A stretch of DNA of 64,000 nt from a bacterium (GTDB taxonomy: Bacteria > Bacteroidota > Ignavibacteria > Kapaibacteriales > UBA2268), in assembly GCA_043804925.1 (NCBI GenBank), contig JAZDIP010000047.1, forward strand, positions 14,987 to 78,986, in the 5' to 3' direction. The stretch's first letter is position 1, and each line of letters opens with the position of its first letter. Of the stretch, positions 5,418 through 59,563 are shown piece after piece. Below the pieces are notes generated by a model, which made no database searches, was not told the origin of the DNA, and saw only the letters and a program-made list of their open reading frames with translations. The translations under genes and the position numbers were made by a program.

Positions 5418-5617
5418 AAATTTTATGACTTAATAATAAAATTATAGAAGTATTTATGATAAGAAGTAATCAATCTGAAATTAAATCTATCACCGATTTG
5501 AAATATTTTTAGGTTGTCAACATAGGACATAATGAAACACCGATTACTGCTATTGTTCCGGTTTGGGTTCCACCATATTGAAAGACTTAAACCCAGATTT
5601 ATTAACCATAACTCATA

Positions 5618-29495: not shown

Positions 29496-29570
29496 GGGCA
29501 GTTAGTTCAGCTGGTCTAGAACGCCTGCCTTACAAGCAGGAGGTCGGGGGTTCGACTCCCTCACTGCCCA
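29496..29570 (+). tRNA. tRNA-Val (anticodon TAC)
   Basis: Hand-folded cloverleaf. Acceptor GGGCAGT/ACTGCCC. Anticodon stem CCTGC/GCAGG with loop CTTACAA. T-arm GGGGGTTCGACTCCC. Confidence 0.85.
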
Positions 29571-29575
29571 CGGGT

Positions 29576-29692
29576 CTTAGAAGATAGGACATAGAAAATA
29601 GAAGATAGAAAGAAGAAAAGAAGAAATTAGATGAGGTGGAGATGTTTTTTTTGTAACTTTCTAATTTCTATGTTCTAATTTCTATTTTCTAA
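29576..29692. other. long imperfect inverted repeat (two ~36-nt arms, ~45-nt loop) filling the tRNA-Val/tRNA-Leu spacer
   Basis: ttagaagataggacatagaaaatagaagatagaaag pairs with the reverse complement of ctttctaatttctatgttctaatttctattttctaa, matching about 28 of 36 positions. Confidence 0.5.
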
Positions 29693-29696
29693 AATC

Positions 29697-29781
29697 GCAG
29701 AAGTGGCGGAACTGGTAGACGCGCTGGACTCAAAATCCAGTGGCCCTTAAAGCCGTGAGGGTTCGAGTCCCTCCTTCTGTA
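29697..29781 (+). tRNA. tRNA-Leu (anticodon CAA)
   Basis: Acceptor GCAGAAG/CTTCTGT (G1-U72). D-arm GTGGCGGAACTGGTAGAC. Anticodon stem CTGGA/TCCAG with loop CTCAAAA. Long variable arm. T-arm GAGGGTTCGAGTCCCTC. Confidence 0.85.
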
Positions 29782-29796
29782 CATATCAATAGTGTT

Positions 29797-30030: not shown

Positions 30031-30399
30031 CTATTGATTATCAGCATTTGATATTAATTCATTTATTGTCAAATCTATTTTATTATCTAATTCTTTAATT
30101 AATTCAGATTCTTTTAAGTATTCAGATTTAATACTAAGCTCTGATAATATACTTTTCATACGGTAAATGTATTTGGGATTATCCAAATTATTTTTATTAC
30201 ATTCAATCAGATTCATAACAAAGAAGATACCGATAATCCAGCTTTCTGATGTTTCAGGAAACTTTGCTCTTATGTAATTCAATCTGTTTCCGTTTTTGCC
30301 TTGCAAAAATTTTCCTTCAATTGGTATTCGTTCCCGGTATTGTTTTTTTCGTTGCCCCTTTCTTTGTACAGTTGCTCTTTGTTTTCTTCTGTTCCACAA
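30031..30399 (-). CDS. hypothetical protein with highly basic N-terminus (possible mobile-element remnant)
   Basis: 122 aa. The N-terminal RKQRATVQRKGQRKKQYRERIPIEGKFLQGKNGNRLNY has no confident family match. Its position next to tRNA genes and direct repeats suggests an integrase or transposase fragment. Confidence 0.3.
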   Translation of the reverse strand: MWNRRKQRATVQRKGQRKKQYRERIPIEGKFLQGKNGNRLNYIRAKFPETSESWIIGIFFVMNLIECNKNNLDNPKYIYRMKSILSELSIKSEYLKESELIKELDNKIDLTINELISNADNQ

Positions 30400-30556: not shown

Positions 30557-32179
30557 TTATTTCAAATATCTAACTCCAATTCTCTCAGCTTCTGAAAACA
30601 AGGAAATGATTTTTAATATTTGGCTTTCAGTTGACAATTTGTAAATATTATATTTAGTTTCCCCAAAATAAAATCGTATTATTTCTAATTTAATTAACAA
30701 TAGTATATTATTCTTATCATTCTCAAACTGGTTTTTATCAAAACCGTTAATCTTGCTTTGAAAAAAATTGCTTAAATCCTTGATGTCGAAGACAGTGAAG
30801 TTATAGTTGTTCATAAAACCGGATGGGTCATTTTTAATAATTTTTTCTAATTCATTCCGATGTTGAAAATAAAAAGAATAAGCAAAAGAATATATTAATT
30901 TTTTTGAAAATAAGGTTTTTAAAAAATCCGAATTATTATTTTCATTAATTATGAAATCAGGAGTAATACCACCCCCCCCATATACATTTCTACCATTAAC
31001 TGTTTTGAACACGAGTGGGAGAGATTCGGGATTAAGAGATTTTGTAATTGATTCTCCGTCCTTCTCGACATTAAGAAATAATCTTTGCTGTATTTTATCT
31101 CTAAATTGTGCGTAATCTTTCTTTTCTTTATTTGAACGATGAATACATCTTCCTGACCTTAAGTAAAATTTTGAAATTGTTAATTTAATTCGTGAACCGT
31201 CACCAACCTCGTATATTCTATCAATTGAGCCTCTTCCATATGTAATATTTCCAGCAATCAGTCCACGGTCCAAATCTTGAATAGCGCCAGCCATAATTTC
31301 GCTCCCAGCTGCTGAATTTTGATTAGCTATTATTGTTAGGGGAATAGTATTATACTTGCCATTCTCTTGACAAATATAGACATCATCAAATGATTCATTA
31401 CGGCCTTTAGTATAGCAAATGGTGTCCCCTTTGTTTAAAAATAAACTACTAACAAAATATACGGAATTTAAGTAACCACCTGGATTATTTCTTAAATCAA
31501 TTATAAGTTTTGTCATACCATTTTTAGACAAAGTGTCCAGCACATTTTTTACCTCATCTAAGGTTGTAGAAGAAAATCTATTGATTCTAATTACTCCGAT
31601 TGATGTTTTATCGATAATAAATGAGGCATCAATCGAATTTGATGGTATTTTTTCTCTTTTTATTTCGAAATCAAGTAATCCTAAAGTTCCTGGTCTTTTG
31701 ATGGATATTTTAACGATGCTTCCAAGGGGACCTCTAAGCATCTTTGGAATTGCATTATTATCAAGACCAATTATGTTTCTTCCATCAATAGCAATAATCA
31801 TATCACCTGAAATTAATCCCGCTTTTTCTGCTGGTCCTGAGCTATTAGGGCTAATAACAATCATTGTGTCATTTACAATATCGAATTGAATGCCAATACC
31901 TACTACTTCATCTGGCGAGTTCTCATTAATACTTTTCATTTCCTCCGGTGTATAATAGACAGAGGTTGAATCAATATCATTTAACATACCTTTTATAGCA
32001 TGATTTATCAGAGTTTCATAATCATGAACATCAGTATGGTTCTTGACTATTGTTTGAAGAATGAACTCAAATTTTTTAATACTAGTATAAGGATTCTGAC
32101 AATAAGTAGTATAATTTAAACTAAATAATGAAATGATATAAGTCAATAGGCAGATTAATAATTTCATAATAAACCTCAA
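30557..32179 (-). CDS. S41-family C-terminal processing peptidase with PDZ domain
   Basis: Signal peptide, a PDZ segment (GPAEKAGLISGDMIIAIDG) and the S41 catalytic region (IIDLRNNPGGYLNS ... K). Confidence 0.8.
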   Translation of the reverse strand: MRFIMKLLICLLTYIISLFSLNYTTYCQNPYTSIKKFEFILQTIVKNHTDVHDYETLINHAIKGMLNDIDSTSVYYTPEEMKSINENSPDEVVGIGIQFDIVNDTMIVISPNSSGPAEKAGLISGDMIIAIDGRNIIGLDNNAIPKMLRGPLGSIVKISIKRPGTLGLLDFEIKREKIPSNSIDASFIIDKTSIGVIRINRFSSTTLDEVKNVLDTLSKNGMTKLIIDLRNNPGGYLNSVYFVSSLFLNKGDTICYTKGRNESFDDVYICQENGKYNTIPLTIIANQNSAAGSEIMAGAIQDLDRGLIAGNITYGRGSIDRIYEVGDGSRIKLTISKFYLRSGRCIHRSNKEKKDYAQFRDKIQQRLFLNVEKDGESITKSLNPESLPLVFKTVNGRNVYGGGGITPDFIINENNNSDFLKTLFSKKLIYSFAYSFYFQHRNELEKIIKNDPSGFMNNYNFTVFDIKDLSNFFQSKINGFDKNQFENDKNNILLLIKLEIIRFYFGETKYNIYKLSTESQILKIISLFSEAERIGVRYLK

Positions 32180-32254: not shown

Positions 32255-33895
32255 TTATTTTTTCCAGAGAATCTGATATTCAATTCTTCGATTCTTTGAT
32301 CTACATTCTTCATTATTACAGTTATTATATAAAAGTTTATCTGAACCAAAACCAAATGTTTTAATTCTTGATTTTTTAATTCCATTTATAACTAAATATG
32401 ACTTAACAGATTCTGCTCTTTTTTCAGATAATTTTAAATTATAGCTCCTGTCTCCCAAATCGCATGTATGTCCTTGCAAGATTATATCTGTCTGATTGTA
32501 TTTCATTAAAAAATTCAATAATCTGTTTAAATCATTTTGATATTTATTAATTTCTAATTTATCGGAGTTTTTATCAAATAGAACGTTTAATATAGGTTCT
32601 CTGGGATATAGGTTTGTATCAGCGGATAGATTTGGTGGCTTTTGAACGGGGATATTTCCATCTTGTAAATCTTGTTGATGGCATTTTTTTAAACAGGTAA
32701 GGATTAGATTTTCACTTGTTTCTCCATACTTTCCAATTGATGAGAGGTCAAGTTTTTTAGCTGTCCCAAAACAACTATCTGCTTCAGCATATACAATATA
32801 TTTTTTCCCGTATGGTAGGACAACTTTAAAGTTACCATTCTTCGAATTTGATGTAGCTCTTCCAACAATTCCTTTATCCCCTAAATATTCAAATTTTATC
32901 TTTGCTTTAACTGCTAAATTACAATTGTCAAATACTTGTCCACTAAGAATAATTGTTGGTGTTATTTTATGTTTTAGAGGTATAATCTTAATATCAGATT
33001 TACCAAGTGAGTTTTTATCTGATATAATATAAGCCGAATCTCCTCTTGCATCAAGAGAAATATATGCATCAAAACTCAATGAATTAATATCTCCACCTAA
33101 GTTTTCTACTTCTGACCAATTCATCCAGGTATCATCGAGCCGTACGCTTTTATATAAATCATAACTACCAAAGCCGCCAACTTTATTACTGGAAAAAAAT
33201 AAAGTTCTGTTATCAGGAGCTAAAAAAGGAGCATGTTCGGCGAATTTTGAATTAACGGTTTTTCCGATATTTATGGGTTCAGACCACTCTTCAGTTGTAT
33301 CATTAAGAAAGCATACGTATAAGTCATAATTACTTTGAGATGTATTCTCATTATTTTCACTAATTGACAAAAAAAGTATCGTATTGTTATTCGCTAAGTA
33401 TGCTTCTGCGAAATCTCCTTTTGAGATATTTTCATAATTTGGTATTTCAAGAGCTTTGGGTGTTTGCCATTCATCACCTTCTTTTTCACAAACAGAGAAA
33501 CCTAAAGTATAAGTTCCATCGATATATTTACCAACTATTAAAGCTGTATTTCCATCGGGAGAAATACTACATATGCCATTAATTGTACTTTCATTAAATG
33601 GCTTCTCCATTTTTTTTGCATCACACCATGAGCCATTTGATTTTTCAGAATACCATATATATTGAAAATATTCTTCTTTGCCATCAATTGTTTCAGAATA
33701 AGATCTTGTAAAATATAATGTTTTGCCATCTGGTGATATTAATGGGGCTAATTCATCTTCTTGAGAGTTAATATTGATTCCAAGATTTGTCTGAGTATAA
33801 CCTAAGAACTGAGAAATTGCCGGATGAATAAATATCATGAAAAAAATTATTGAAATAAATAAGGATTCAATAATTCTAATTGATTTTGTTTTCAA
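32255..33895 (-). CDS. PD40 (TolB-like beta-propeller) repeat protein with C-terminal OmpA domain
   Basis: Repeated SPDGKTLYFT/SPDGNTALIVG PD40 units. The C-terminal LQGHTCDLGDRSYNLKLSEKRAESVKSYL...NRRIEY segment is OmpA-like. Paralog of 56209..57759. Confidence 0.8.
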   Translation of the reverse strand: MKTKSIRIIESLFISIIFFMIFIHPAISQFLGYTQTNLGININSQEDELAPLISPDGKTLYFTRSYSETIDGKEEYFQYIWYSEKSNGSWCDAKKMEKPFNESTINGICSISPDGNTALIVGKYIDGTYTLGFSVCEKEGDEWQTPKALEIPNYENISKGDFAEAYLANNNTILFLSISENNENTSQSNYDLYVCFLNDTTEEWSEPINIGKTVNSKFAEHAPFLAPDNRTLFFSSNKVGGFGSYDLYKSVRLDDTWMNWSEVENLGGDINSLSFDAYISLDARGDSAYIISDKNSLGKSDIKIIPLKHKITPTIILSGQVFDNCNLAVKAKIKFEYLGDKGIVGRATSNSKNGNFKVVLPYGKKYIVYAEADSCFGTAKKLDLSSIGKYGETSENLILTCLKKCHQQDLQDGNIPVQKPPNLSADTNLYPREPILNVLFDKNSDKLEINKYQNDLNRLLNFLMKYNQTDIILQGHTCDLGDRSYNLKLSEKRAESVKSYLVINGIKKSRIKTFGFGSDKLLYNNCNNEECRSKNRRIEYQILWKK

Positions 33896-34413: not shown

Positions 34414-35445
34414 ATGAGTTTTTCTGAACTTTGCATCAAATTATGTGATGTCGAATTGTCGTTACTTGACGATTTGAAAAAATACAGCACAACAAATAAT
34501 GAGTTATTATATCAATTGGAAAATCTGAAGGAAACTGCTACCAAAACATTGAATGAAGCTGAAATTCAAATCAAAAACCGCCAGAACGAACCTGAAACTT
34601 ATAATTTCTTAATTTCCTATTTAAAAGAAACTAAAATTATTACTGAGTTAATTAATAAGAATAAAAAGCACTTAGCCAACTTTTTTAATAGCAATAGAAA
34701 ATCCGTTGAAATTGAAGAGCTTATACAAAAAAAAATATTTTCACTACTAAATTCGAGATTTTTAATTATTACACAACGTAGGGTGTTGAAGTCTGGTGTA
34801 GATTTCGAAGAATTAAAAAAAGATAAGGAAGATATTGTTCAAAACGCTATGTTAAAAATCTCAAAAAATTATTTAAAAATCAATTATAAAATTGGTTTTT
34901 ATTATTGGGCTCTCAAGGTTCTATATAATAAAACAGGTGATTATTATCGTGAACGATTAAAGTATAGTTATTTTAATGATAACGTTGTAGAAATTTTAAC
35001 ATCAATTGATGATGCAATCAGCTATAAAGAAATAGAAAATGTGATAGAAGTTCTTGAAGGAAATAGAAACACTGTAATTTTCTCAATTCGCGATTGTATA
35101 CTAAAGTGTTTAAAAAAGTTAAATAAAGATTGCCAAAGATTCTTCAGGTTATTTCTTGATGAGGGATTAGATAAATGGGAAATGTGTGTTGCTTTTTATA
35201 GTATTTTTAATCCTGATGATTATTCGAAAGAACAGCAGGAGAAAATTATAGATAAATTTAATTCAAAAAAATCTTATTGTAAAAGTTTATTCTTAGAATT
35301 ACTTCAAAAAGCAAAATGTGTTGAATTAAAAGAAAACAAAAAAGATAAAAAGAAAAGTAAAAAGGTTAAAAAAGGAAATAAAAATGGGAAGAAAAATAAT
35401 AAAAATATTATACTGGCTGACTACATTGAGGGAGAAGCAAAATGA
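34414..35445 (+). CDS. divergent ECF-type sigma-70 family factor with N-terminal extension and lysine-rich tail
   Basis: A region-2-like segment (DIVQNAMLKISKNY...GFYYWALKVLYNKTGDYYRERLK, compare ...WLy.IarN...d..R...) and a region-4-like segment (CLKKLNKDCQRFFRLFLDEGLDKWEMCVAF). Confidence 0.5.
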   Translation: MSFSELCIKLCDVELSLLDDLKKYSTTNNELLYQLENLKETATKTLNEAEIQIKNRQNEPETYNFLISYLKETKIITELINKNKKHLANFFNSNRKSVEIEELIQKKIFSLLNSRFLIITQRRVLKSGVDFEELKKDKEDIVQNAMLKISKNYLKINYKIGFYYWALKVLYNKTGDYYRERLKYSYFNDNVVEILTSIDDAISYKEIENVIEVLEGNRNTVIFSIRDCILKCLKKLNKDCQRFFRLFLDEGLDKWEMCVAFYSIFNPDDYSKEQQEKIIDKFNSKKSYCKSLFLELLQKAKCVELKENKKDKKKSKKVKKGNKNGKKNNKNIILADYIEGEAK

Positions 35446-36416
35446 GCTGTATTAATGATAAAATCGGAAACAAATTGGAATTTTATCTTTTCAATAAATT
35501 AACAGAATCTGAAAAATTGGAGTTTGAAGAACATTTATTTGAGTGTAAATTCTGTTATGAACAGTATCGCGAGTTGTTTCCAGCGATTCAAACTATGCTT
35601 GAAAATACAGAATTTTTCAGGGCTGAGCTCGATAAATCAATTAATATTTTAAAAAAAAACGAAGATGTTTCGACAGAAAATACTGTTATAGGTTCACCAA
35701 TTGAACGACAAAATATCATTAAAAGAATCTTATCCAATAAGCTTACTTACTATTCAGCGGCTGCATCCGTTATTTTAGTTTTTGGTTTATATCTCACATA
35801 TCAAATTGGATATTTCTACGGGAAGGATGATAGTTATCAAAATAATAGAATTGCAGAACGTGGGGAAAGACTTTGGCATCATGAAAATTTTGGTGATACT
35901 GTTAATAATCCTTTGGGACCAGATAGTCACCGGATAAGAGAATCCCAACCATTGCCAGATGAGCAAATAGCAAGTATTGATTTGAGTTCCTTACCCGATG
36001 ACTCAAGAAATCCATGGGTATTATCTACTCAATTTAGTACAGATAGACCGGCAACAAACGAAAAATTTGAATCAGCTTTAAGAATTTACCGGGAGGGTAA
36101 TAAGTATTCACATGCATTGGAAAAATTCTTGAGCTGTGAGAGAAACGAAACTTCTAACTTTTATATTGCAATGTGCTATCTATACTTAGGTGAATTCACT
36201 TCTTCGATTCATATAATTAATCAAATGGGGAAAATTACAAATAGCGATATTAAGGATTTAGTTTATAAAGCTCTTGCTCATAATTTAATAAATATTAGAA
36301 GGCAGGAAGGAATTAATCGTATTAGTTTAATGAGAAATTTTTTAAATAATAATTATAGTAGAGATGAAATTCAATCCTTAGAAAATACAATAAATAATAT
36401 AAATATTGAAAATTAA
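35442..36416 (+). CDS. putative anti-sigma factor (zf-HC2 zinc finger, single TM helix)
   Basis: The HLFECKFCYEQY motif is an H-x3-C-x2-C zinc finger at the N-terminus, with one TM helix (LTYYSAAASVILVFGLYLTYQIG). Its start overlaps the sigma gene stop (ATGA). Confidence 0.5.
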   Translation: MSCINDKIGNKLEFYLFNKLTESEKLEFEEHLFECKFCYEQYRELFPAIQTMLENTEFFRAELDKSINILKKNEDVSTENTVIGSPIERQNIIKRILSNKLTYYSAAASVILVFGLYLTYQIGYFYGKDDSYQNNRIAERGERLWHHENFGDTVNNPLGPDSHRIRESQPLPDEQIASIDLSSLPDDSRNPWVLSTQFSTDRPATNEKFESALRIYREGNKYSHALEKFLSCERNETSNFYIAMCYLYLGEFTSSIHIINQMGKITNSDIKDLVYKALAHNLINIRRQEGINRISLMRNFLNNNYSRDEIQSLENTINNINIEN

Positions 36417-36447
36417 TATATCAACCATAAATTATTCGGAGAGCCAT

Positions 36448-39267
36448 ATGAAGACTTTTAGACTATTTTTTATTCCATTCATTACCTTTTTTTTAATTAT
36501 AGTAAATCTTTTTTCACAAATTAATACTACTAACTTTGATGAAATAAGAAACAGATATTCTTCAGCTGTTGTTGTAGTAAAGGTTATTAATAATCTTAAT
36601 GAAGAATTTCACGGGAGTGGAATTGTATTAGATTCTACAGGTTATATTGTAACCTGTAATCACGTTATTGCAGGAAGTAAAGAAATTAAAGTAATTTTTA
36701 ATGACAAAAAAGAGTATAATGTAGTATCATTTTGCAATGACCCGGTTAATGATATTGCTTTGCTAAAGATAAATGCTGGAGAATTGGAACATGTCGTGTT
36801 CAATCAATTAGGTTGCAATAAAGGAGAAAGTATTTGTGTCTTAAGTAATCCCGGAAATTTACGGAATATATTAGCTGTTGGGACAATTAGCAATTTTAAT
36901 ACATCGGGTTCTATAGTACTTGATGTAATAACTGCAAGAGGTTCATCGGGAGGGGCAGTTTTTACAACAAGCGGTAATGTTATAGGTATGATTGTATCAG
37001 GCGATGAAACACGAAGTATCACTAATGCCGTACCAATTCAGAAGATTGCTTCATTAAGGCAAAAGGGAGAATTTAAAACTTTGCCTACTACAATTCCCTT
37101 TCTAGATTGCAATCAGCTTTTAAATGAAGCTATTGATTCAATTAATAGTGGAATAAATTCTTATCATAGTGCCTTTAATCTGCTGTCCTTAATAATGAAT
37201 AGTTGTCCTGATAATCCCGGGGCTATATATTGGATGGCTTACATGTATTATAATTTGGGGAATTTTACAACCGCACTTAGTTATTATAACAGGGCATTAG
37301 AAAACAGGGATGCATTGCTTAAAATTAAAATGCTGCATGATGCTTATTTTGAGCGAGGCATTACATTAGTTGAACTTGATATGTATAGGAAAGCGATACC
37401 TGATTTCAAAGAAGCCCAGCAAATTTATCCTGTTTACAAAAACAAATGTTATTTTAATATATATTCATGTTTTTACAATCTTGACCAATGCGATAGTGCT
37501 ATCTTTTATTTCTTTAAAATTCCTTTGGAGGAAGCAAAAAACATGATTCTTGTCCGAAATACATGGGAAAATGTCATAACTTGTTTGGAAAAAACAAAAG
37601 GAGCGAATTATAAAGAAAGAATTGAATCCATTCGCAAGATTGTTGAATCATTACCTCCGCTAAATCCTGATTTTTATTTAAAAGAAGCATTGAAGTTGTA
37701 TAAATCAGGGAAATTGCAGGAAGCCAATGACTATTTGTTAGAAGGTATTTCAAAATATCCCGGAAATTATGATTTGAATTCAACGTTGGGATTGATGTTT
37801 TTTGAGCAGGGTATTCAAAGGGATGATAATAATAATTATAATTCAGCTTTACGATATTTTAACACTGCTTATAAGGTCAACGAAAGAGCAGATTTAGGCA
37901 ATAATATTGTTACTACATACTATTTGATGGCAAAATCACATTACTTATCAGCAATAGATTATTATAATCAATTGGTGATTGCAGATAATTGGGATGACCA
38001 TAAAGAAATTACAAAATTTCTTGATTCATCGAATTCTTATATAAGGAAGGCAATGCAGGATAGATATTTTAACAAAAATAATGCATCTAAATCAATTCTA
38101 TCTTTAGATACCAATATTAAATTGATGACTGCTCAAATATTAAGACAAAGAGAGAAATACAGAGAAGCACTCGATTCACTGGAGAAATATTTTGTTGACC
38201 CGAATAAATGTGAAATTCTATTTGAATTTGCAATGAATGAATTCAAATTAAAACAAAATAATAATGCTTTAAACTATATAAACAGGGCAATAGAGAATGG
38301 CAATGATTCAAAATGTCTTTGTAATATCCGGAATTTAAAAATTAATATTCTTACGAATTCAGATAATAATAAAGAAGCCTTACAAGAAGCTATGACTTTA
38401 AAAGATTTGGGATGTAAATCAGCTGGAGAACAAATGTGTTATACATTAGATAATTTTCTTGTTGATAAGTTCATTAAGAAAGAATATGATGATATAATAG
38501 ATTTTTTCATGGGTAATGACGAACTATTGGATATTTGTCCTTGTGCTAATTGGTTTTTGAGTGCTTCTAATTACAGAAAGGGAAGACTTGAGGACGAGAA
38601 GTTAAAAACAGATAGAAATCAGGCAGTTGCCAGCGAAACGAATATCCAAAATGTTTTGGAGTATTATAAACGTGCATTGACAAACTTATCAAAAGCACGT
38701 TCAATGGGATGCCAACGTAAGGATTTTTGTCTGGAATCAGCAATTCATAATTCCATGGGATTAATAATTGCGAACAATGGTAATTATATTGATTCCAGGA
38801 TAGATTACATGACTGCGAAGAAGTTTGCATCGGATAGATATGAACAGGAAGAACCTTGTAAAGGAGAATTGTTGGAAACTTATCTTCATTATGCGAATTT
38901 ATATGTATCTGATGTTGTACAAAATTACGATTCCTGCATAATTGTATGTAATGAAGGTTTAAATATATTCCCCAATAATTGTGAATTATCGTATTATTCG
39001 GCGTTTAGCTACTATAAATTATTTATTAGAGGTCAAAGCAATGAAGATTATTTATTAAGAGCTAACCAAATCGTCAATAAATTACTGGAATTTTGTCCAA
39101 AACATGTTGGTGCTTTAAGATTAGGTGTTGAGATTAATGTTCTTATGAAACAATATAAAAAAGCATGTGAATATTGCAGAAGTTTAATGAGGGAGGGGGG
39201 AGATAATCCTGATGTACCATGCTTAAAATGGTTAAGAGATAATTATCAGATTGACTGTCCTGAATAA
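36448..39267 (+). CDS. secreted trypsin-like serine protease (S1) domain fused to a ~750 aa TPR-repeat region
   Basis: Signal peptide. The catalytic-triad context (TCNHVIAG (His), NDIALLKI (Asp), RGSSGGAVF (Ser)) is followed by multiple TPR-like repeats. Start trimmed to MKTFRLFF after a GGAGAG SD. Confidence 0.65.
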   Translation: MKTFRLFFIPFITFFLIIVNLFSQINTTNFDEIRNRYSSAVVVVKVINNLNEEFHGSGIVLDSTGYIVTCNHVIAGSKEIKVIFNDKKEYNVVSFCNDPVNDIALLKINAGELEHVVFNQLGCNKGESICVLSNPGNLRNILAVGTISNFNTSGSIVLDVITARGSSGGAVFTTSGNVIGMIVSGDETRSITNAVPIQKIASLRQKGEFKTLPTTIPFLDCNQLLNEAIDSINSGINSYHSAFNLLSLIMNSCPDNPGAIYWMAYMYYNLGNFTTALSYYNRALENRDALLKIKMLHDAYFERGITLVELDMYRKAIPDFKEAQQIYPVYKNKCYFNIYSCFYNLDQCDSAIFYFFKIPLEEAKNMILVRNTWENVITCLEKTKGANYKERIESIRKIVESLPPLNPDFYLKEALKLYKSGKLQEANDYLLEGISKYPGNYDLNSTLGLMFFEQGIQRDDNNNYNSALRYFNTAYKVNERADLGNNIVTTYYLMAKSHYLSAIDYYNQLVIADNWDDHKEITKFLDSSNSYIRKAMQDRYFNKNNASKSILSLDTNIKLMTAQILRQREKYREALDSLEKYFVDPNKCEILFEFAMNEFKLKQNNNALNYINRAIENGNDSKCLCNIRNLKINILTNSDNNKEALQEAMTLKDLGCKSAGEQMCYTLDNFLVDKFIKKEYDDIIDFFMGNDELLDICPCANWFLSASNYRKGRLEDEKLKTDRNQAVASETNIQNVLEYYKRALTNLSKARSMGCQRKDFCLESAIHNSMGLIIANNGNYIDSRIDYMTAKKFASDRYEQEEPCKGELLETYLHYANLYVSDVVQNYDSCIIVCNEGLNIFPNNCELSYYSAFSYYKLFIRGQSNEDYLLRANQIVNKLLEFCPKHVGALRLGVEINVLMKQYKKACEYCRSLMREGGDNPDVPCLKWLRDNYQIDCPE

Positions 39268-39308: not shown

Positions 39309-39342
39309 TTTCGAGATTTTCCATTTTTCCGCAACATAGTAT
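39309..39342 (+). promoter_or_regulatory. conserved promoter-like motif TTTCGAGATTT-N12-CAACATAGTA, copy A (upstream of 39383)
   Basis: One of three copies (also 43720-43752 and 49123-49154) with near-identical flanks and spacing, each 40-50 nt upstream of a plus-strand start codon. Confidence 0.55.
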
Positions 39343-39382: not shown

Positions 39383-39649
39383 ATGGAAAAGACAGACAAA
39401 ATTCCTTGCCCCAGATGCAAGGGTAAAAGTGTTAGTATTGGTTCACCCAATACATTTAAAGTTCTAAAATGGTTTCTGATTATTTTGGTTGGTGGTTCTG
39501 TTTCATCAGTATTGTCATATCTTACGGAAGTCAGGGCAGTTGGAATAATATCATTTTTTGTTATAGCTTTTATTGTAAAGACATTTCCAAATATGGTAAT
39601 GTTAAAATGTAACAGTTGTGGTAAAAGTTGGTTCCAGCCATATATTTAG
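39383..39649 (+). CDS. small membrane protein with split zinc-ribbon (CPRCKG...CNSCG)
   Basis: 88 aa with two CxxC pairs flanking two TM helices. Starts MEK, like the peptide at 43799. Confidence 0.45.
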   Translation: MEKTDKIPCPRCKGKSVSIGSPNTFKVLKWFLIILVGGSVSSVLSYLTEVRAVGIISFFVIAFIVKTFPNMVMLKCNSCGKSWFQPYI

Positions 39650-39718
39650 AAGCATTAAAAAACATTATTTTTTTTTAAAAGAAATTCATTATTGTCATAT
39701 TTTACTCAGGAGACTCAA

Positions 39719-40216
39719 ATGAAAAAATCATATTTAATTTTTCTTTTTATAAGTTTATTTTTATTTACAAATGTTTTTGTGAAAGCTCAAAGTAAAAGCT
39801 TAATAGACTGCTTGGAATCACTTCATTATTCTTCCATTCAATTAACACCGAATATGTACGGACATTTTGAAATGGAGGCAATGCTTGACGGTAAACATCC
39901 AATTGTACTAATTGTAGATACTGGTTCCAGCATGTCATTACTTAGCAAATCTCTTTTAGATTCCGTTGGCTACGTTACTCATCCTGTACCTGACCCTGAA
40001 GGCAGAGAATTGTGGAGAGTCCGCGTTGACAGTCTGACATTCGGGAAAGCTAATACCGGTCGTAAAGAATTAATTGTAGGTAACCTCGACGAATTATTTC
40101 CGGGATTTGATGCTTACGGTAAAAGAATACATGGATTAATCGGTTCAGATTTACTTTCAAGGTATTCTGCCCTTATAGACATTGAATGGTCAAGATTATA
40201 TTTACTTGTTAGATAG
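39719..40216 (+). CDS. secreted retropepsin-like (clan AA) aspartic protease
   Basis: Signal peptide and the VLIVDTGSSMSLL active-site D-T-G-S motif of bacterial retroviral-type aspartyl proteases. Start trimmed to the ATG after AGGAG. Confidence 0.6.
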   Translation: MKKSYLIFLFISLFLFTNVFVKAQSKSLIDCLESLHYSSIQLTPNMYGHFEMEAMLDGKHPIVLIVDTGSSMSLLSKSLLDSVGYVTHPVPDPEGRELWRVRVDSLTFGKANTGRKELIVGNLDELFPGFDAYGKRIHGLIGSDLLSRYSALIDIEWSRLYLLVR

Positions 40217-40249
40217 AAACAATCTTTAAACAAATTTTTGGAGGTTAAA

Positions 40250-40948
40250 ATGAAAAAAGCTAATATTCTAATTGCATTAGCTTTACTTGTTATAGCAAAT
40301 AGCAATCTCTTTTGTGGGAAATATTCGGATACTGTAGAAATCAATGTTTTTGCAGAATTAATTGATTACGAAGTTCCTGCTGACACTAATTATATATATG
40401 GAGGAGCAGCATTAATGGAAGGTGATGTTAATGTAGGTTTATCAAAAAAAGGACTTGATTCTGCTCATCTTATTTTTATACAAGCTTATTTCAATATGGG
40501 ATTTGGGAAAATTAAAAATACAGGACAATCTGAAATAATATTGAATTGTGATGATGAACTTAAATCATCTGTAAGAAAACAAGTTGATGGGAGTCAGTCA
40601 TCTTCAGCAGATTTAAGTTTGATAACTTTGTCAAAAAGTGATTTTGATGTCATTTTTCCTGAGTCTATTTTAATCCGATATGATAAATTCAATTGGATGG
40701 TTGTAGATAATTTCAACTTTAATAAAGAAGATTTAGATTTACTCCTCAAAGAAAAGAAAGGGGAAAATAATACAGGGATATTAGCTGAAGATTATAAAAT
40801 GCAGATAAGACCTGAAGTTGCCACAATGAAAGCTATAAGAAGTAAGGAATGGAAAATAAAAATTGGCGCGACATTGCATATTAAAGAAAATCAAGAATCA
40901 GGGGAATATACAGGGCTTTGCCGTGTAATTGTAAAATATAAGGATTGA
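40250..40948 (+). CDS. hypothetical secreted protein
   Basis: Signal peptide and no recognised motif. Start after GGAGG. Confidence 0.4.
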   Translation: MKKANILIALALLVIANSNLFCGKYSDTVEINVFAELIDYEVPADTNYIYGGAALMEGDVNVGLSKKGLDSAHLIFIQAYFNMGFGKIKNTGQSEIILNCDDELKSSVRKQVDGSQSSSADLSLITLSKSDFDVIFPESILIRYDKFNWMVVDNFNFNKEDLDLLLKEKKGENNTGILAEDYKMQIRPEVATMKAIRSKEWKIKIGATLHIKENQESGEYTGLCRVIVKYKD

Positions 40949-42893: not shown

Positions 42894-43706
42894 ATGAAAA
42901 ATCAAAAACTATATTGGCTTTTACTAATAATTTGTTGTGTTTTTATTGGTAATAGTATAATGAATGCACAAACCTACAAGGAAATGGAAATAACCGTTGA
43001 GGTCGAAGTTACGATTGAGCCGGACCCAAATCCTGACACTCTACCTTTGCCACCTCCAATTTATATTAATCTGCTTGCTGATGTTGAATCTCCAAGTAAA
43101 GACACAACAGGTAAAACATATATTTCCGGTAATGCAATAGAAGGGGAAAGAATATCTGTAAAAAGTAATTTGATTTCCTCAGATATTAATCAATATATAA
43201 TTGAAAAAAGATTGTTTAAAACTTTAGCTTCGAGTCATTCGGGTTATTGGAAATATTATATTGACAGTAGTGTTTCGATGGACTTTGGAGTATTATATTC
43301 AACCGATAAGGCAGGTTTGGCAGTACTAAATATGGATAGCACTAAGACTGTACTTGGAGGTATAAAATTTAAAAATGACTTATGTAGACCGGCAACAGTA
43401 ATTCTGAAAATGAAAGATTTCAATAAAGATAACTCTAAAGAAAAGAAAGTTAAAATAGACCTGGATACGATTTATTTCAAGATTGAACTCCCCAAAGAAG
43501 GAATGTTAAAGAACGATAAAGGCGACATGATGAGAATCAATTATCTAACATCTTCAAAAGAAATTTGGCATGTCAAAAAGGATGAAAATTCTAAAATTAA
43601 GATTACAGGTGCTATTGAATTAACAGCAAAACAGCCAAAAGGCACTTATCGGGGAAAATTTACTTGCAAAGTAATTTTCGTTTTACCGGATATAGTTGTG
43701 AGATAA
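42894..43706 (+). CDS. hypothetical secreted protein
   Basis: Signal peptide. No recognised motif. Confidence 0.4.
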   Translation: MKNQKLYWLLLIICCVFIGNSIMNAQTYKEMEITVEVEVTIEPDPNPDTLPLPPPIYINLLADVESPSKDTTGKTYISGNAIEGERISVKSNLISSDINQYIIEKRLFKTLASSHSGYWKYYIDSSVSMDFGVLYSTDKAGLAVLNMDSTKTVLGGIKFKNDLCRPATVILKMKDFNKDNSKEKKVKIDLDTIYFKIELPKEGMLKNDKGDMMRINYLTSSKEIWHVKKDENSKIKITGAIELTAKQPKGTYRGKFTCKVIFVLPDIVVR

Positions 43707-43719
43707 AATAAAAAATATT

Positions 43720-43752
43720 TTTCGAGATTTTACCATTTGTCTCAACATAGTA
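43720..43752 (+). promoter_or_regulatory. conserved promoter-like motif TTTCGAGATTT-N12-CAACATAGTA, copy B
   Basis: Followed by AGGAGG and an ATG at 43799. Confidence 0.55.
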
Positions 43753-43798: not shown

Positions 43799-43903
43799 AT
43801 GGAAAAGCACGATACAGTTACATTCAGAAAAGTCAAGGATACAATATACTGGTTTGTATTCTTTTTGTTAATGCTTTTGGTTTGTTTACCATTGGCTTTT
43901 TAG
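43799..43903 (+). CDS. small hydrophobic peptide (34 aa, MEKHDTVTFRKVKDTIYWFVFFLLMLLVCLPLAF)
   Basis: Strong AGGAGG SD 7 nt upstream and a single TM helix. Missed by the >=60 aa ORF track. Sits directly downstream of motif copy B. Confidence 0.35.
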   Translation: MEKHDTVTFRKVKDTIYWFVFFLLMLLVCLPLAF

Positions 43904-43945: not shown

Positions 43946-44581
43946 ATGTTAGTATTTGAGAATGAAGATGGAAAACAAAAGACAGTAGAAGAGGGTTGGT
44001 CATGGGTTGGTTTCTTTTTCCCTCACATCTGGGTTTTTGTAAAAGGACTTTGGGAAATTGGATTCCTGTTTGTACTTTTTGTTGCTATACAAATTCTAAC
44101 AATTGGTATTCAGGAACTTGGAATTGTCTACTGGATTATCAGTATTGTTGCAAGATTTATTATCGGTGCTAAGGGTAATAAAATGGTTGTAGATAACCTT
44201 ATAAAAAAAGGATATTATCAAACTGGTGGTGTTACTAATATTGAAGAATATATCCAAAGAGCTGAGCGTCTTATTGAGATAGAGAATTACGAGGGAGCAA
44301 TTAGAAATTATTCATTCTACATTGAAATCAATGATAGCAATCCGGAAGTGTTTTTAAATAGAGGAATGGCACATTTCGATATAAAGAATTACAGTGAGGC
44401 TTTATCTGATTACAACACAGCTTTAAATCTAAATCCAAAATATTCAGATGCACTTTACTGCCGTGGTGAAGTCAAAATCGAATTTGAGGATATTGAAGGT
44501 GCTTGTAAAGATTTTTTCAAAGCACAAGAATTGGGCGACAAAGATGCTGATGAAATGATTGCAAAATATTGTAGTGCATGA
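43946..44581 (+). CDS. membrane-anchored TPR-repeat protein
   Basis: Two N-terminal TM helices, then three TPR units (AIRNYSFYIEINDSNPEVFLNRGMAHFDIKNYSEALSDYNTALNLNPKYSDALYCRGE...). Confidence 0.55.
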   Translation: MLVFENEDGKQKTVEEGWSWVGFFFPHIWVFVKGLWEIGFLFVLFVAIQILTIGIQELGIVYWIISIVARFIIGAKGNKMVVDNLIKKGYYQTGGVTNIEEYIQRAERLIEIENYEGAIRNYSFYIEINDSNPEVFLNRGMAHFDIKNYSEALSDYNTALNLNPKYSDALYCRGEVKIEFEDIEGACKDFFKAQELGDKDADEMIAKYCSA

Positions 44582-45037: not shown

Positions 45038-46192
45038 ATGGAAAATAATAATACAACATTTAAGCAAAAGTCAATTTACTATCAAGATGCTTCAGATAGG
45101 ACAAAAGAAAGTGGTATAAATTCAGCTCTGAGTATCATAGGATGGTCATTTATAATTGGCTCTGTTGGATTTATAATTTGGATTATCTCCAGAACATTTT
45201 TCTCAACCATCGGTTTTCTTGTTACTATAGGTGGAGTTATTGGTATAATAGTTGGACTTATAAGAACAATAATTAACATTGTTCGTAAAACAAAGAGGAT
45301 AAAATGTCCGAAATGCAATACTGAAGTAAATGTTTATGGCTCAGTAAAAAAGTATATGTGTCTCAATTGTAGGAGTTTACTGCTTTTAGGCAAAGATAGT
45401 ACTTTAAATTTAAAACCTAAAAAATGTCATTATTGTGGACATGAAACATTTGTAACCGAGGACCATGGCAATTTCTTATGCTCCGATTGTGGTATCATTT
45501 TGCAAAGCAATACATCTTCATATAAAAATAAGGACGAGAGGGAAATTAACAATCTCATTAACTGCCCCAATTGCAATAAACAAGTTCCCAAAACAGTAAT
45601 TTATTGCAAATATTGTAATGAGATATTAATAAATGAATTTGAATTATGTAGTGTCAGTGACCAATTACGATATGACCTAGATTGGAAAATCGGTAAAAGT
45701 TCATTAGGTCATTTTAATTATGCAAGAGCAGTTCTTAAAAATATTCGAGTTTTAATTTTAAAAGCGGAAAATCTTTGGGCTGTTCGAAATTTAAAATGGA
45801 AACTTGAAACTGTTTTTATCTCTTTAGAGGAAGCTATTACAGATCATAAGTTATATCAAGAAATAGGAAATTTACTACCTGAGATTGATTTACTTTATTC
45901 TGATATTTTAGAGCAGGAACTGAAATTTGTAAAAAGATTTGATCAAAAGATAAAATATCCTAAAGATGAATTCTCATTGATAACTTATGAGCCACAAATA
46001 CAAATCCGAAGAAAAATTGAATCTATCTTTGGTTCCAGACTCGAAGCGATTGGCTCTGTTGGTGTATGGGGAAATAATCTTGTCGAGATTAAAGAATTCG
46101 ACAAAAAAGCAAGATTAGAAAGTTATTCAAACTTAGAATCAGAAGTTGAACGGTTCTTAAAATGGAAATCAAAACATAAAGAAACGAATTAA
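45038..46192 (+). CDS. membrane protein with three zinc-ribbon modules and a C-terminal cytosolic domain
   Basis: Two TM helices, then CPKCN..CLNCRS, CHYCGH..CSDCG and CPNCNK..CKYCN. Confidence 0.45.
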   Translation: MENNNTTFKQKSIYYQDASDRTKESGINSALSIIGWSFIIGSVGFIIWIISRTFFSTIGFLVTIGGVIGIIVGLIRTIINIVRKTKRIKCPKCNTEVNVYGSVKKYMCLNCRSLLLLGKDSTLNLKPKKCHYCGHETFVTEDHGNFLCSDCGIILQSNTSSYKNKDEREINNLINCPNCNKQVPKTVIYCKYCNEILINEFELCSVSDQLRYDLDWKIGKSSLGHFNYARAVLKNIRVLILKAENLWAVRNLKWKLETVFISLEEAITDHKLYQEIGNLLPEIDLLYSDILEQELKFVKRFDQKIKYPKDEFSLITYEPQIQIRRKIESIFGSRLEAIGSVGVWGNNLVEIKEFDKKARLESYSNLESEVERFLKWKSKHKETN

Positions 46193-46233
46193 ATAAATAC
46201 TAGATGTTCCATATAAATTTAGAATATAAAAGA

Positions 46234-48399
46234 ATGAAAAAAATAGTAACAACATTAGTAATTTTATACTCTACGTTTTTTGCAAACCTCTTTTCTCAAG
46301 ATAGCTCAAATGTGCCCTGCAAAGTTTTGGGCTTCGGAAAATTACATGATATTGCTATAAGTCCCGACAGTAAGAAATTAGCTAGTGCTTCATCAGCTAT
46401 GATTGTGATATGGGATTTGGAGACTGGAGATTCACTAAAAACTCTATCTGGAAATTCAGATTATATAAGGTCCATCAGTTGGTCACCAGATAGTAAAATC
46501 CTTATTGGTGGGAGTAATAATGGGACAATATTTTTTTGGAATATTTCCAGCGGTAAAATAATCAGGACCATCAAGGCATATTCACATGGTTATGTTTGGT
46601 CTGTTAGCTGTTCACCAAAAGGGAATATTCTTGCAACCGTAAAATCGGATAAGACAATAAAAATATGGGACATTTCCAGCGGTAAAGAAATCATAACTTT
46701 AAAAGGGCATACTGATTGGATATGGTCGGTCAGTTGGTCCCCGGACGGCAAAAGACTAGCCAGTGTGAGTGCGGATAAGACAATAAAAATATGGGACATT
46801 TCCAGAGGTAAAGCAATCCGAACACTTGAAGGACATACTGATGATGTAGGATCAGTCGCATGGAGTCCTGACGGCAAAAAGTTGGCAAGCGGAAGCTTGG
46901 ATAATACAATAAAGTTATGGGATATAGAGAACGTCAAAGAACTGATGACTCTCAAAGGGTATGCTTATTCACAAAATTCTGTAAGTTGGAGTCCCGATGG
47001 CAGCAAACTGGCAAGCGGAAGTTTGGATATGACTATCAGAATATGGGATGCAACAAGCGGCAAAAAACTGAAAAAACTTGAAGGGCATACAAAAGGGATA
47101 CATTCAGTCAGTTGGAGTCCCGATGGTACAAAACTAGTAAGCGGAAGTGGAGATGGAACAATTAGGATATGGTATTTAGAACCGGAAGAAGAAAAAGAGA
47201 GAATTAAAATTCCACCGATTGCCTTGTCTTTTTCAGGAGTTTTTATTCCAATTATTGTTCGGGAGTATGAAGGTGTTCAATCAACCAACAAAAATGTTGA
47301 CACATATTTATCTCCGGAAATGATGCTAAAAGTAAATGTATATGACAGGTTCAGTTTTTGGGTAAACTACACAAAGCCATTTATTACTTCATCCTCGTCC
47401 ATTAATGAAAAGAAAATTTTTAGCGAATGGAACGGAAATGCTTTTGGCTTTGGAATTGGTTACAATATTTTCAATCCCGAAAACAGATGGGGATTAAATG
47501 CATATCTCGGCTGGCTGTATTACGATAGTAAAGCAGTATCGGAATACAACAGCCAAAAGATGAACGGTAGAACGATTTGGCGGGCTTTTTCAATTGGTGC
47601 TGAATTAACCTACAGACCAATCGAGAGCTTTCCCGGATTGCAATTAACATTCAGACCTACTTTAAATTATTCATTAAATGAAGACCTGGTATTTAATATT
47701 TCTAATAATCCAATTATTATTGGACATAGCTTAGCGAATATAAATTTAGGAGTTAGGTATACTTTTGATTTGGGATTTACTTCAGAATCAAAAGCTGAAA
47801 CTGAGGAAATTGTGAAAAGAGAAGAGATAGAAGAAGTTAATATATGCGACCAAATCTGGATGAAAAAAAATCTCGATGTTGAGCATTATCGAAACGGTGA
47901 CTCAATTCTGTATTGTGAGACGCAAGCAGAATGGAAAGAAGCATATAATAACAAAGAAGGTGCTTGGTGCTATTGTAATAACGACTCAACAAACGGGAGA
48001 ATTTACGGTAGACTTTATAATTGGTATGCAGTAAACGACTCAAGAGGACTTGCTCCCGAGGGCTGGCATGTGTCCACATTTGATGAGTGGACTGAATTAG
48101 TTAACTGTCTTGGAGGAAAAGATGTGGCTGGAGGTAAGCTAAAAGAAGCAGGAACGACTCATTGGAATAGTCCAAATACTGGAGCCACTAATGAAAGTGG
48201 TTTTACTGCTCTTCCGGGAGGTGCCTGTGCTACTAATGGCAATTCTGGAGATAATGGTATTCATGGCAATTGGTGGGTGTTAAATAAAAAATTTTCTAAT
48301 AATAAAATTTGGAGCTTTTACTTAAATTATAAATCAGTCTCTATAAAGAGTTTCGATTTTAAGGATATGGGTTTTTCTGTTCGCTGTGTAAAGGATTAA
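46234..48399 (+). CDS. WD40-repeat / beta-barrel / Fibrobacter-succinogenes-major-paralogous-domain (Fib_succ_major) fusion protein
   Basis: Signal peptide. Seven WD40 units (GH..WSVSWSPDGK.LASGS.D.TIKIWD). A central region has an alternating beta-strand pattern. The C-terminus matches TIGR02145 closely (ICDQIWMKKNLDV...GRLYNWYAV...EGWHVSTFDEWTELVNCLGG...ESGFTALPGG...GFSVRCVKD). Confidence 0.75.
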   Translation: MKKIVTTLVILYSTFFANLFSQDSSNVPCKVLGFGKLHDIAISPDSKKLASASSAMIVIWDLETGDSLKTLSGNSDYIRSISWSPDSKILIGGSNNGTIFFWNISSGKIIRTIKAYSHGYVWSVSCSPKGNILATVKSDKTIKIWDISSGKEIITLKGHTDWIWSVSWSPDGKRLASVSADKTIKIWDISRGKAIRTLEGHTDDVGSVAWSPDGKKLASGSLDNTIKLWDIENVKELMTLKGYAYSQNSVSWSPDGSKLASGSLDMTIRIWDATSGKKLKKLEGHTKGIHSVSWSPDGTKLVSGSGDGTIRIWYLEPEEEKERIKIPPIALSFSGVFIPIIVREYEGVQSTNKNVDTYLSPEMMLKVNVYDRFSFWVNYTKPFITSSSSINEKKIFSEWNGNAFGFGIGYNIFNPENRWGLNAYLGWLYYDSKAVSEYNSQKMNGRTIWRAFSIGAELTYRPIESFPGLQLTFRPTLNYSLNEDLVFNISNNPIIIGHSLANINLGVRYTFDLGFTSESKAETEEIVKREEIEEVNICDQIWMKKNLDVEHYRNGDSILYCETQAEWKEAYNNKEGAWCYCNNDSTNGRIYGRLYNWYAVNDSRGLAPEGWHVSTFDEWTELVNCLGGKDVAGGKLKEAGTTHWNSPNTGATNESGFTALPGGACATNGNSGDNGIHGNWWVLNKKFSNNKIWSFYLNYKSVSIKSFDFKDMGFSVRCVKD

Positions 48400-49122: not shown

Positions 49123-49154
49123 TTCGAGATTTCTTTGATTCCTCCAACATAATA
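49123..49154 (+). promoter_or_regulatory. conserved promoter-like motif TTTCGAGATTT-N12-CAACATAATA, copy C
   Basis: Lies 43 nt upstream of the ATG at 49197. Confidence 0.55.
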
Positions 49155-56171: not shown

Positions 56172-56208
56172 AAATAATTTTTTTTATAATATAAAGAAAG
56201 GTACTATA

Positions 56209-59400: not shown

Positions 59401-59563
59401 TAGATTCAAAAATCTGGACCTAATGTGCAATGAATATTATTTTTTATTTCATTTGAAGATACTTAAAATTGATACATTTATTCAATGTAATTAAAATTAC
59501 TTTAAAATCAGCTTATTGCTTTTATTAGGAAGGAATAGCTCATTACAGCATTTATGTATAAAG

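Follow-up and report, generated by a model that had tools for sequence, protein, structure and literature searches.

What does a secreted protease do when its gene stands behind those of a sigma factor and an anti-sigma factor? The question is raised by three consecutive plus-strand genes in a stretch of 64,000 nucleotides (nt) from the bacterial contig JAZDIP010000047.1, hereafter the window (guanine-plus-cytosine (GC) content about 30%). The genes encode a protein related to sigma factors of the extracytoplasmic function (ECF) type, a zinc-binding anti-sigma factor (ZAS), and a serine protease fused to a long tetratricopeptide repeat (TPR) solenoid. The open reading frames (ORFs) are present where a first-pass annotation of the window had placed them, at 34414-35445 (343 amino acids, aa), 35442-36416 (324 aa) and 36406/36448-39267 (953/939 aa). 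They had been expected to co-occur elsewhere, and the trio indeed recurs in two strongly diverged loci, L001 (the contig of protease P0033, labelled "MAG: Bacteroidota bacterium") and L003 (the contig of protease P0061); one of these two twins lies on a Logan contig. The window, L001 and L003, all from uncultured organisms, are the only three loci known for the module. We propose the protease as a candidate for the enzyme that starts the release of the sigma factor. The three genes are:

34414..35445, plus strand: divergent ECF-like sigma factor with matches to ECF profiles; homologues only at L001 2006-2761 and L003 1947-3053
35442..36416, plus strand: single-pass class-I (ZAS) anti-sigma factor with C3/H31/C35/C38, a transmembrane (TM) segment, a periplasmic TPR-like domain and an ATGA overlap with the sigma gene
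36448..39267, plus strand: exported serine protease of the HtrA/DegS fold with a TPR-like solenoid; H72, D102 and S167, no PDZ domain, solenoid of about 700 aa with 24 cysteines

The protease is the best defined of the three proteins. The Trypsin_2 profile matches with E=5.5e-20, a GSSGG motif is present, and the N-terminus forms a signal or anchor helix; in an alignment of 31 sequences D102 and S167 are invariant and H72 is kept in at least 90%. In the AlphaFold2 (AF2) model, whose mean predicted local distance difference test (pLDDT) is 74.8, residues 40-215 exceed 90 and about 32 helices follow between residues 221 and 933. According to Foldseek the protease domain is closest to DegS delta-PDZ, HtrA1/2 and DegQ (template-modelling score 0.78-0.86, 28-31% identity). 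No PDZ profile matches the protein, and past residue 215 the model contains helices only. The protein thus resembles the HtrA family in its working and, because the PDZ domain is absent, is not a canonical member. The earlier description as a 940-aa secreted trypsin-like protease with a TPR array agrees with the Trypsin_2 domain, the signal helix and the approximately 32 helices (in 939 aa), with the restriction that within the C-terminal 700 aa some stretches only are recognised by Pfam as canonical TPRs. All three protease copies carry an export signal. The solenoid contains 24 cysteines in the window, 19 in P0033 and 31 in P0061, which is consistent with a periplasmic, disulfide-bonded protein.

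A HMMER search with this protease against 1.84 billion cluster representatives gave 21,431 matches, among which only the protease itself scored below 1e-30. Many of the matched proteins are 380-560 aa long, consist of a signal peptide, Trypsin_2 and TPR, and align to protease residues 1-355. Only two representatives share the full architecture, namely P0033 (891 aa) and P0061 (934 aa), and both are encoded in sigma/anti-sigma loci. Their similarity to the window protease is significant over the first 300-330 residues only, with none detectable past residue 330 or so.

The sigma factor was identified by profiles, because phmmer with the single sequence finds no sigma factor in the PDB and returns only chance matches to nucleoside diphosphate kinase. 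The protein consists of a helical N-terminal extension (residues 1-100, approximately), region 2 (about 100-182), a variable linker, a putative region 4 (about 222-300) and a Lys-rich tail. Sigma70_r2 matches it with E=1.4e-3, under the gathering score, and TIGR02937 (sigma70-ECF) matches residues 128-252 with 39.4 bits (E=4.5e-10), the cut-off being 42.9 bits and all three homologues scoring below it. Nine further ECF models match, and every sigma profile match stays below its curated cut-off. At permissive thresholds, where such matches had been anticipated, sigma-70/ECF profiles hit the window protein as well as both homologues: Sigma70_r2 is matched in all three (best E=6.5e-7), and TIGR02937 gives E=9.9e-8 for L001 and 2.1e-8 for L003. 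The TIGR02937 alignment covers model positions 11-160 of 165 in the L001 protein and reaches position 134 of 165 in the window protein. When a profile of the three sequences was compared with the PDB, 14 of the 17 matches were ECF sigma structures, RpoE, SigH, SigW, CnrH and SigR among them. Alignment by hhalign to an RpoE sequence gave 93% probability (E=2.8e-7) and put region 4.2 at window residues 192-228.

Judged by these profiles, the identification of region 2 is solid. Region 4, which had been called recognisable together with region 2, appears only through the TIGR02937 spans and through a shared pattern, (A/C)LK(K/Q)L...C(Q/N)..F followed by YC(K/R)..F.(E/D); the Pfam families r4 and r4_2 match none of the three homologues, and regions 1.1 and 3 have no profile match either. 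The previously noted N-terminal extension measures about 100 aa provided that ATG 34414 is the start, against about 45 aa in the two homologues; the linker reaches up to about 130 aa. ECF sigma factors with an N-terminal extension are rare yet known (PMC7826278). The lysine-rich tail is likewise present, in the window protein only. The homologues (251 aa in L001, 368 aa in L003) are 31-32% identical to the window protein. Despite this identity of about 30%, three cysteines of the C-terminal half (C228, C240 and C289 in window numbering) are invariant, and they may form a metal site or a redox switch.

The second gene fits the anticipated zf-HC2 anti-sigma factor with one TM helix. The zf-HC2 match (E=1e-3) and a match to the anti-sigma model NF052375 are both weak; C3 and H31-x3-C35-x2-C38 are invariant across the three homologues. 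One moderately hydrophobic segment, SAAASVILVFGLYLTYQIG (residues ~104-122), which lies below the 1.6 Kyte-Doolittle threshold used for TM calls, occupies the same position in all three. It is followed by a low-complexity linker and a C-terminal TPR-like domain (about residues 210-320) that resembles the TPRs of YbgF and BamD. The homologues in L001 (326 aa) and L003 (343 aa) are 23-28% identical to the window protein. L003 also harbors two tandem paralogues (4595-5185 and 5224-5826; 196-200 aa, with a signal or anchor sequence), which in their C-terminal TPR domain share 36-39% identity with the periplasmic part of the L003 anti-sigma factor. The two may serve as decoys or co-sensors that stand on their own; the window and L001 contain no counterpart.

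The sigma and anti-sigma genes are translationally coupled. In the window the anti-sigma start overlaps the sigma stop (ATGA), and a GAGGGAG Shine-Dalgarno (SD) sequence lies within the sigma 3' end; overlap and internal SD are kept in all three loci. For the protease, ATG 36448 is most likely the start, since it has its own GGAGAG SD and is spaced 31 nt past the anti-sigma stop. The proposed coupling of all three genes therefore applies to the first junction and not to the second, with its separate SD and 31-nt gap.

The conserved unit is larger than the trio. In L001 the order is sigma-like protein, TPR-tailed anti-sigma homologue, protease, PD40-OmpA protein and a protein of the Asp_protease_2 family. 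In L003 a divergent PD40-OmpA gene is followed by the sigma-like gene, the anti-sigma homologue, a Zn-ribbon membrane protein, the two small TPR proteins, a further PD40-OmpA protein and the protease. Alignments show that the proteins encoded around the two proteases are genuine homologues of their window counterparts. Besides the three genes, the functional unit includes the genes of a PD40-OmpA protein and a Zn-ribbon membrane protein, those of a microprotein and an aspartic protease, and a shared promoter-like motif. In the window the additional proteins are:

32255..33895, minus strand: PD40 (TolB-like propeller) and OmpA_C peptidoglycan-binding protein (Pfam OmpA 3.6e-19, PD40 1e-15)
39383..39649, plus strand: Zn-ribbon membrane protein of 88 aa with two CxxC pairs around two TM helices (L003 homologue E=6e-5)
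39692..40216, plus strand: secreted single-domain retropepsin-like aspartic protease with DTG at 76-78, 58% identical to the L001 copy
43799..43903, plus strand: unannotated 34-aa membrane microprotein MEKHDTVTFRKVKDTIYWFVFFLLMLLVCLPLAF with an AGGAGG SD; homologues at L001 6588-6695 and L003 13500-13607

The PD40-OmpA gene is divergent from the sigma gene in the window, a homologue lies beside the module in all three loci, and the window protein is 28-37% identical to its L001 and L003 neighbours. These proteins combine a propeller, a CarboxypepD_reg-like region and OmpA_C, as do members of the CHU_0125/PorE class; PorE belongs to the type IX secretion system (T9SS), and CHU_0125 maintains outer-membrane integrity (PMC5891637). 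Because they score only 139-222 bits with the PorE and CHU_0125 models, far under the cut-offs of 600-620 bits, the PD40-OmpA proteins of the module are not orthologues of either, and we found nothing that connects PorE or CHU_0125 with a sigma factor. The Zn-ribbon protein with its two TM helices is 29% identical to its homologue, whose gene in L003 lies directly 3' of the anti-sigma gene. The aspartic protease is the best-conserved protein of the module. The microprotein homologues (34-35 aa) share the motif [ST]F[RK][KE][VI]KD and a TM helix and have their own SD; this combination occurs once per locus and nowhere else in the three sequences. The association with a small membrane protein recalls AlgU-MucA-AlgW, where the DimA microprotein activates the DegS homologue AlgW (PMC12780092).

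No close relatives of the three proteins were found: word-indexed searches of 5.8 billion proteins returned the query proteins alone, and the same type of search with the three-sequence sigma profile added only the L001 sigma. Exact-sequence look-ups of the window proteins gave no record. A scan of genome contigs with the sigma alignment and of metagenome contigs with the anti-sigma alignment yielded the L001 contig alone. The module thus looks rare, or too diverged or fast-evolving for pattern scans, and the best explanation is that it is conserved and lineage-restricted, in T9SS-bearing bacteria of the Bacteroidota type.

The promoter-like motif was found by a dyad search of the intergenic regions of the cluster. 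Its window form is TTCGAGAT-N14-CAACATA and its general form T-N3-AGR-N15-CNACRT. The window contains the following copies:

39310..39338, plus strand: TTCGAGAT-N14-CAACATA, 45 nt 5' of the ATG of the Zn-ribbon gene (39383)
43721..43749, plus strand: TTCGAGAT-N14-CAACATA, 50 nt 5' of the ATG of the microprotein gene (43799)
49123..49151, plus strand: TTCGAGAT-N14-CAACATA, 46 nt 5' of the gene of a PKD / T9SS-sorted protein (49197-50570)
34752..34780, plus strand: TTCGAGAT-N14-CAACGTA, one mismatch, within the sigma gene (codons N113-R123)

The three exact copies are all intergenic and precede SD-led starts at 39383, 43799 and 49197. With at most one mismatch allowed, the four matches compare with 0.04 expected; all four are plus-strand sites from the stretch 34.7-49.2 kb, and the other 50 kb contain none. 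The exact window motif is absent from L001 and L003, and locus-specific variants emerged when the homologous sigma codons were aligned. L001 has two copies of TGTAAGG-N15-CGACAT (0.08 expected), one at the homologous codons of the sigma gene and one 40 nt 5' of the microprotein gene. L003 has TCTTAGR-N15-CCACRT at the homologous sigma codons and 37 nt 5' of the microprotein gene; a third copy with two mismatches, on the minus strand, faces the divergent PD40-OmpA gene. These three (two exact and the OmpA-facing one) are the ones assigned to the motif among four matches in L003 (0.62 expected), and the fourth is probably spurious. In each locus, then, the microprotein gene sits 37-50 nt 3' of that locus's own motif.

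In an alignment of the eight sites, T...AG...T and C.AC.T are invariant. The internal and intergenic copies agree within each locus and differ between loci: at the N of CNAC the internal/intergenic pair reads A/A in one locus, G/G in another and C/C in the third, and the residue encoded by the internal copy shifts from Q to R to P. Such agreement within and difference between loci speaks for selection on the DNA itself and for a trans-acting factor that co-evolves with the motif. The geometry of the motif (hexamer, N16, C[AG]AC) is like that of ECF promoters such as those of B. subtilis sigmaX/W. The genes of ECF sigma factors typically lie together with those of their regulators and targets, and the promoters are group-specific (PMC7826278). 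Given the ECF-like geometry, the co-variation and this habit of co-encoding, we infer that the motif is the putative promoter of this sigma factor. The internal copy likely gives rise to a transcript for anti-sigma factor and protease, because no conserved start codon follows it. A shorter sigma isoform starting from it was considered and rejected for the same reason, and also for the fact that the product would be without the first region-2 helices. A dyad search of the three sigma upstream regions revealed no common motif and hence no classical autoregulatory promoter, and a scan for generic sigma-70 promoters and terminators gave no informative signal in DNA of 30% GC.

Taken together, these features suggest an ECF sigma/ZAS anti-sigma pair that is freed by proteolysis, begun by the co-encoded DegS-fold protease with its solenoid as sensor; we assign this reading a probability of about 0.5. 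The ECF-type sigma factor would be kept at the inner membrane by the co-translated, zinc-binding, single-pass anti-sigma factor with its small periplasmic TPR domain. The periplasmic protease from the same transcription unit, in which the disulfide-rich TPR solenoid would replace the PDZ sensor, would respond to an envelope cue by cutting the anti-sigma factor at site 1. After this first cut, a housekeeping site-2 protease encoded outside the window and cytoplasmic proteases would complete the release. Free sigma would act at T-N3-AGR-N15-CNACRT promoters ahead of the Zn-ribbon and aspartic-protease genes, the microprotein gene and the T9SS cargo gene, and the internal copy would renew anti-sigma and protease expression as feedback. 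In favour of this reading, sigma/anti-sigma loci are the only places where the long-solenoid protease was found, and the solenoid has diverged at the same rate as the two regulators, in contrast to the conserved aspartic protease. The DegS fold of the protease and the precedent of DimA, a microprotein that activates a DegS homologue, point the same way.

The first cleavage of the anti-sigma factor and the cue that is sensed are known for few ECF systems, and identifying the site-1 protease is hard, since its gene is usually unlinked. In the present module a candidate site-1 protease is co-encoded, TPRs stand in place of the PDZ sensor, and the sequence itself reveals a putative promoter and a minimal regulon. 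With its approximately seven parts, the module could help to decide if HtrA proteases fused to TPRs are signal receptors. In addition, a protein annotated as hypothetical is recognised as an ECF-like sigma factor, and an unannotated conserved microprotein is added.

Several known systems share parts of this arrangement. In sigmaE-RseA-DegS-RseP and AlgU-MucA-AlgW, too, a single-pass anti-sigma factor holds an ECF sigma factor, and the protease is of the HtrA family with an N-terminal membrane or signal helix. They differ in that the window protease carries, in place of PDZ, a cysteine-rich solenoid of TPRs about 700 aa long, that the window anti-sigma factor is of the ZAS type with a periplasmic TPR domain and not RseA/MucA-like, and that the window sigma has an N-terminal extension and conserved cysteines; moreover, degS is not encoded in the sigma operon. 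No RseB-like match was found among the scanned neighbour proteins, and the window contains no M50/RseP gene. The proposal of a sigmaE-RseA-DegS logic in another architecture is thus supported as far as the protease domain is nearest to DegS/HtrA with the PDZ replaced, the DegS-like role itself being suggested by gene linkage. In the sigmaW-RsiW-PrsW/RasP system of B. subtilis a zinc-finger membrane anti-sigma factor is inactivated by regulated intramembrane proteolysis via a dedicated site-1 protease, and the promoter geometry is similar (a -35 hexamer, N16-17 and a CGxx -10). PrsW, however, is a membrane metalloprotease and not S1/HtrA, has no TPR and is encoded outside the sigma operon.

The closest precedent for the gene order is the sigE/rseA-htrA-tatB locus of M. 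tuberculosis, with sigma factor, anti-sigma factor and HtrA-type protease in this sequence and with anti-sigma factor and protease co-transcribed. It is actinobacterial, its proteins are similar to those of the window at the domain level only and not orthologous, and it has no counterparts of the PD40-OmpA protein, the microprotein and the aspartic protease; the window in turn is without tatB, and HtrA of M. tuberculosis carries a PDZ domain. The sigE locus also has a promoter, P3, internal to the sigma coding region (PMC10027907). The earlier suggestion of an undescribed envelope-signalling system is therefore to be qualified: literature searches returned no description of a sigma/anti-sigma/TPR-HtrA module and no matching architecture, but the order of the three genes has this precedent.

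Several observations weigh against a signalling role of the protease. The DegS-like role is drawn from gene linkage, and in L003 four genes lie between those of the anti-sigma factor and the protease. The module is known from just three loci. Two short relatives with signal peptide, Trypsin_2 and TPR have no anti-sigma gene directly upstream, as seen on 2-3 kb contigs that carry little context. The sigma-proximal motif copy is internal and not upstream, which is unusual for ECF autoregulation, and it partly overlaps the invariant codons R115 and F116. On the side of the sigma factor, region 4 is only weakly detectable in the sequence, hhalign found nothing against a SigW region-4 fragment, and the AF2 model, calculated from a two-sequence alignment, is uninformative (pLDDT 39.7). 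Another enzyme could cut the anti-sigma factor, namely an S41 protease encoded two genes upstream (30557-32179); S41/PDZ C-terminal processing proteases are a known site-1 protease class. Finally, the M. tuberculosis HtrA of the rseA operon degrades a cell-wall amidase and is not known as a signal protease (PMC10027907).

The gene of the S41 protease is located on the minus strand, directly 3' of the PD40-OmpA gene and co-directional with it. It encodes a C-terminal processing peptidase with PDZ that matches TIGR00225 (prc) above the cut-off, and it is not conserved at L001.

The strongest alternative, which we hold to be possible though distinctly less probable than signalling, is that the protease is an output: an enzyme of envelope proteostasis or remodelling that is co-transcribed as a member of the regulon, with the TPR solenoid as substrate adaptor. 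Specific proteins of the periplasm or outer membrane might be its substrates, such as peptidoglycan hydrolases or the PD40-OmpA tether. NlpI-Prc of E. coli is one example of a TPR adaptor paired with a periplasmic protease. Another is LbcA-CtpA of P. aeruginosa, where a TPR lipoprotein is reported to serve as scaffold that brings substrates to a periplasmic serine protease and steers it to cell-wall hydrolases, thereby controlling envelope enzymes (PMC6050968). In both pairs, however, the TPR lipoprotein and the S41 protease are separate and have no sigma linkage, whereas in the window the TPR is fused to an S1C protease. An output role also agrees with M. tuberculosis, where rseA-htrA-tatB form one operon and the substrate of HtrA is the amidase mentioned above (PMC10027907), with the frequency of signal-peptide + Trypsin_2 + TPR proteins outside sigma loci, and with L003, in which the protease gene lies directly 3' of a PD40-OmpA gene and not of the anti-sigma gene; the internal motif, moreover, would put the protease under control of the sigma factor. 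What speaks for signalling instead is the restriction of the long-solenoid form to sigma/anti-sigma loci, together with a solenoid that diverges at the pace of the sigma/anti-sigma pair while the aspartic protease remains 58% identical, a pattern that fits a specificity-determining signalling partner better than a housekeeping protease.

It is improbable that the first gene is no working sigma factor but a degenerate sigma-2-like protein in a locus for surface-structure or T9SS-related assembly. Such a view could appeal to the profile matches, all of which are under curated cut-offs, to the phmmer search against the PDB, to the missing independent match for region 4 and the uninformative AF2 model, to the PGAP/NCBI annotation, which calls gene 1 a hypothetical protein of 309 aa beginning at the TTG of residue 35, and to the PorE-like and T9SS-sorted proteins nearby. 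It conflicts with the fact that three diverged homologues match many ECF models with E-values of 1e-7 to 1e-10, with the nearly complete TIGR02937 span of the L001 protein (11-160 of 165) and the predominance of ECF sigma structures (14 of 17) among the PDB matches of the family profile. It also leaves aside the textbook ZAS N-terminus of the downstream protein, which is translationally coupled in all three loci, and a bipartite motif of ECF geometry that changes along with the protein from locus to locus. More improbable still is a conflict system, directed against phages or other bacteria, with TPR sensor and trypsin effector under sigma/anti-sigma control: a weak TPR-S match (residues 402-495, E=8.6e-5, 23.5 bits against a cut-off of 27.6), resemblances of the protease domain to PADLOC RT-Protease_XI (1.2e-14) and of the aspartic protease to PDC-M08B (2.6e-6), the WD40, TPR and Zn-ribbon proteins downstream, and the reported ECF/anti-sigma control of a defence island by DdvS/DdvA (PMC11506125) are outweighed by the domain-level nature of the PADLOC matches, by a cluster that, unlike TPR-S/NTPase conflict systems, has no STAND/AAA or other NTPase, reverse transcriptase, nuclease or other defence core gene, by the export of protease, aspartic protease and neighbours and the Cys-rich solenoid, which place them in the periplasm or at the surface, and by recurrent partners of the PD40-OmpA type, which are envelope-structural.

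Beyond the signalling reading itself, a wider and rather doubtful picture can be drawn. The module would define an unclassified group of ECF-like sigma factors with a dedicated, co-encoded site-1 protease whose disulfide TPR solenoid is the signal receptor, and the promoter inside the sigma gene would amplify only anti-sigma factor and protease. The sigma-induced microprotein and Zn-ribbon protein might feed back on protease or anti-sigma factor, comparable to DimA-AlgW, and the outputs might be the secreted protease of the retropepsin type together with PorE-like proteins that bind peptidoglycan, and these would reshape the connection between outer membrane and peptidoglycan.

The neighbourhood of the module is formed by a single plus-strand run from 34.4 to 59.4 kb with exported, TPR, WD40, DUF4402 and T9SS-sorted proteins. 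The aspartic protease gene is followed by two genes for secreted DUF4402 proteins (40238-40948 and 42894-43706, plus strand) that flank two orphan secreted proteins; this stretch may be co-transcribed from the motif at 39310. Further 3', a DUF2628-TPR membrane protein (43946-44581) and a Zn-ribbon protein (45038-46192) precede a 731-aa protein in which a multi-blade WD40 propeller is fused to Fib_succ_major (46204-48399, plus strand). A 571-aa TPR protein (53959-55674, plus strand) is followed by a second PD40-OmpA protein (56104-57759, plus strand), whose identity is 37% with the protein encoded at 32255-33895 and 45% with the divergent OmpA of L003.

Signal peptides of the proteins encoded at 32255-33895, 36448, 39692 and 42894 and of the L001 and L003 proteases end in A/S-Q (VKA-Q, AIS-Q, NA-Q, LFS-Q), which fits the 'Q-rule' of Bacteroidetes for signal peptidase I substrates. 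Por_Secre_tail domains are encoded at 7263-9416 and 49197-50570. Both features point to a T9SS-bearing organism of the Fibrobacteres-Chlorobi-Bacteroidetes (FCB) group.

A 518-bp divergent intergenic region at the GC-skew minimum was considered as replication origin and rejected; it has no DnaA boxes, and the skew tracks the gene strand. A cluster of DnaA-box-like sites lies at 59261-62007, in and around a SIR2 gene (61553-62323), with perfect copies of TTATCCACA at 59261, 61068 and 61924 and three one-mismatch copies at 61680-62007; the window-wide box count is not above chance. An Rfam scan of the window gave two tRNAs and nothing else, tRNA-Val(TAC) and tRNA-Leu(CAA) (29496-29782, plus strand). 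They are followed by a 122-aa ORF (30031-30399, minus strand) with a weak match to a DDE transposase C-terminus (E=1.6e-4), which is probably a transposase remnant. Finally, a 945-aa protein encoded at 19841-22678 on the minus strand combines PDZ, GAF and SpoIIE/PP2C domains, an unusual architecture for a phosphatase of the partner-switching type.

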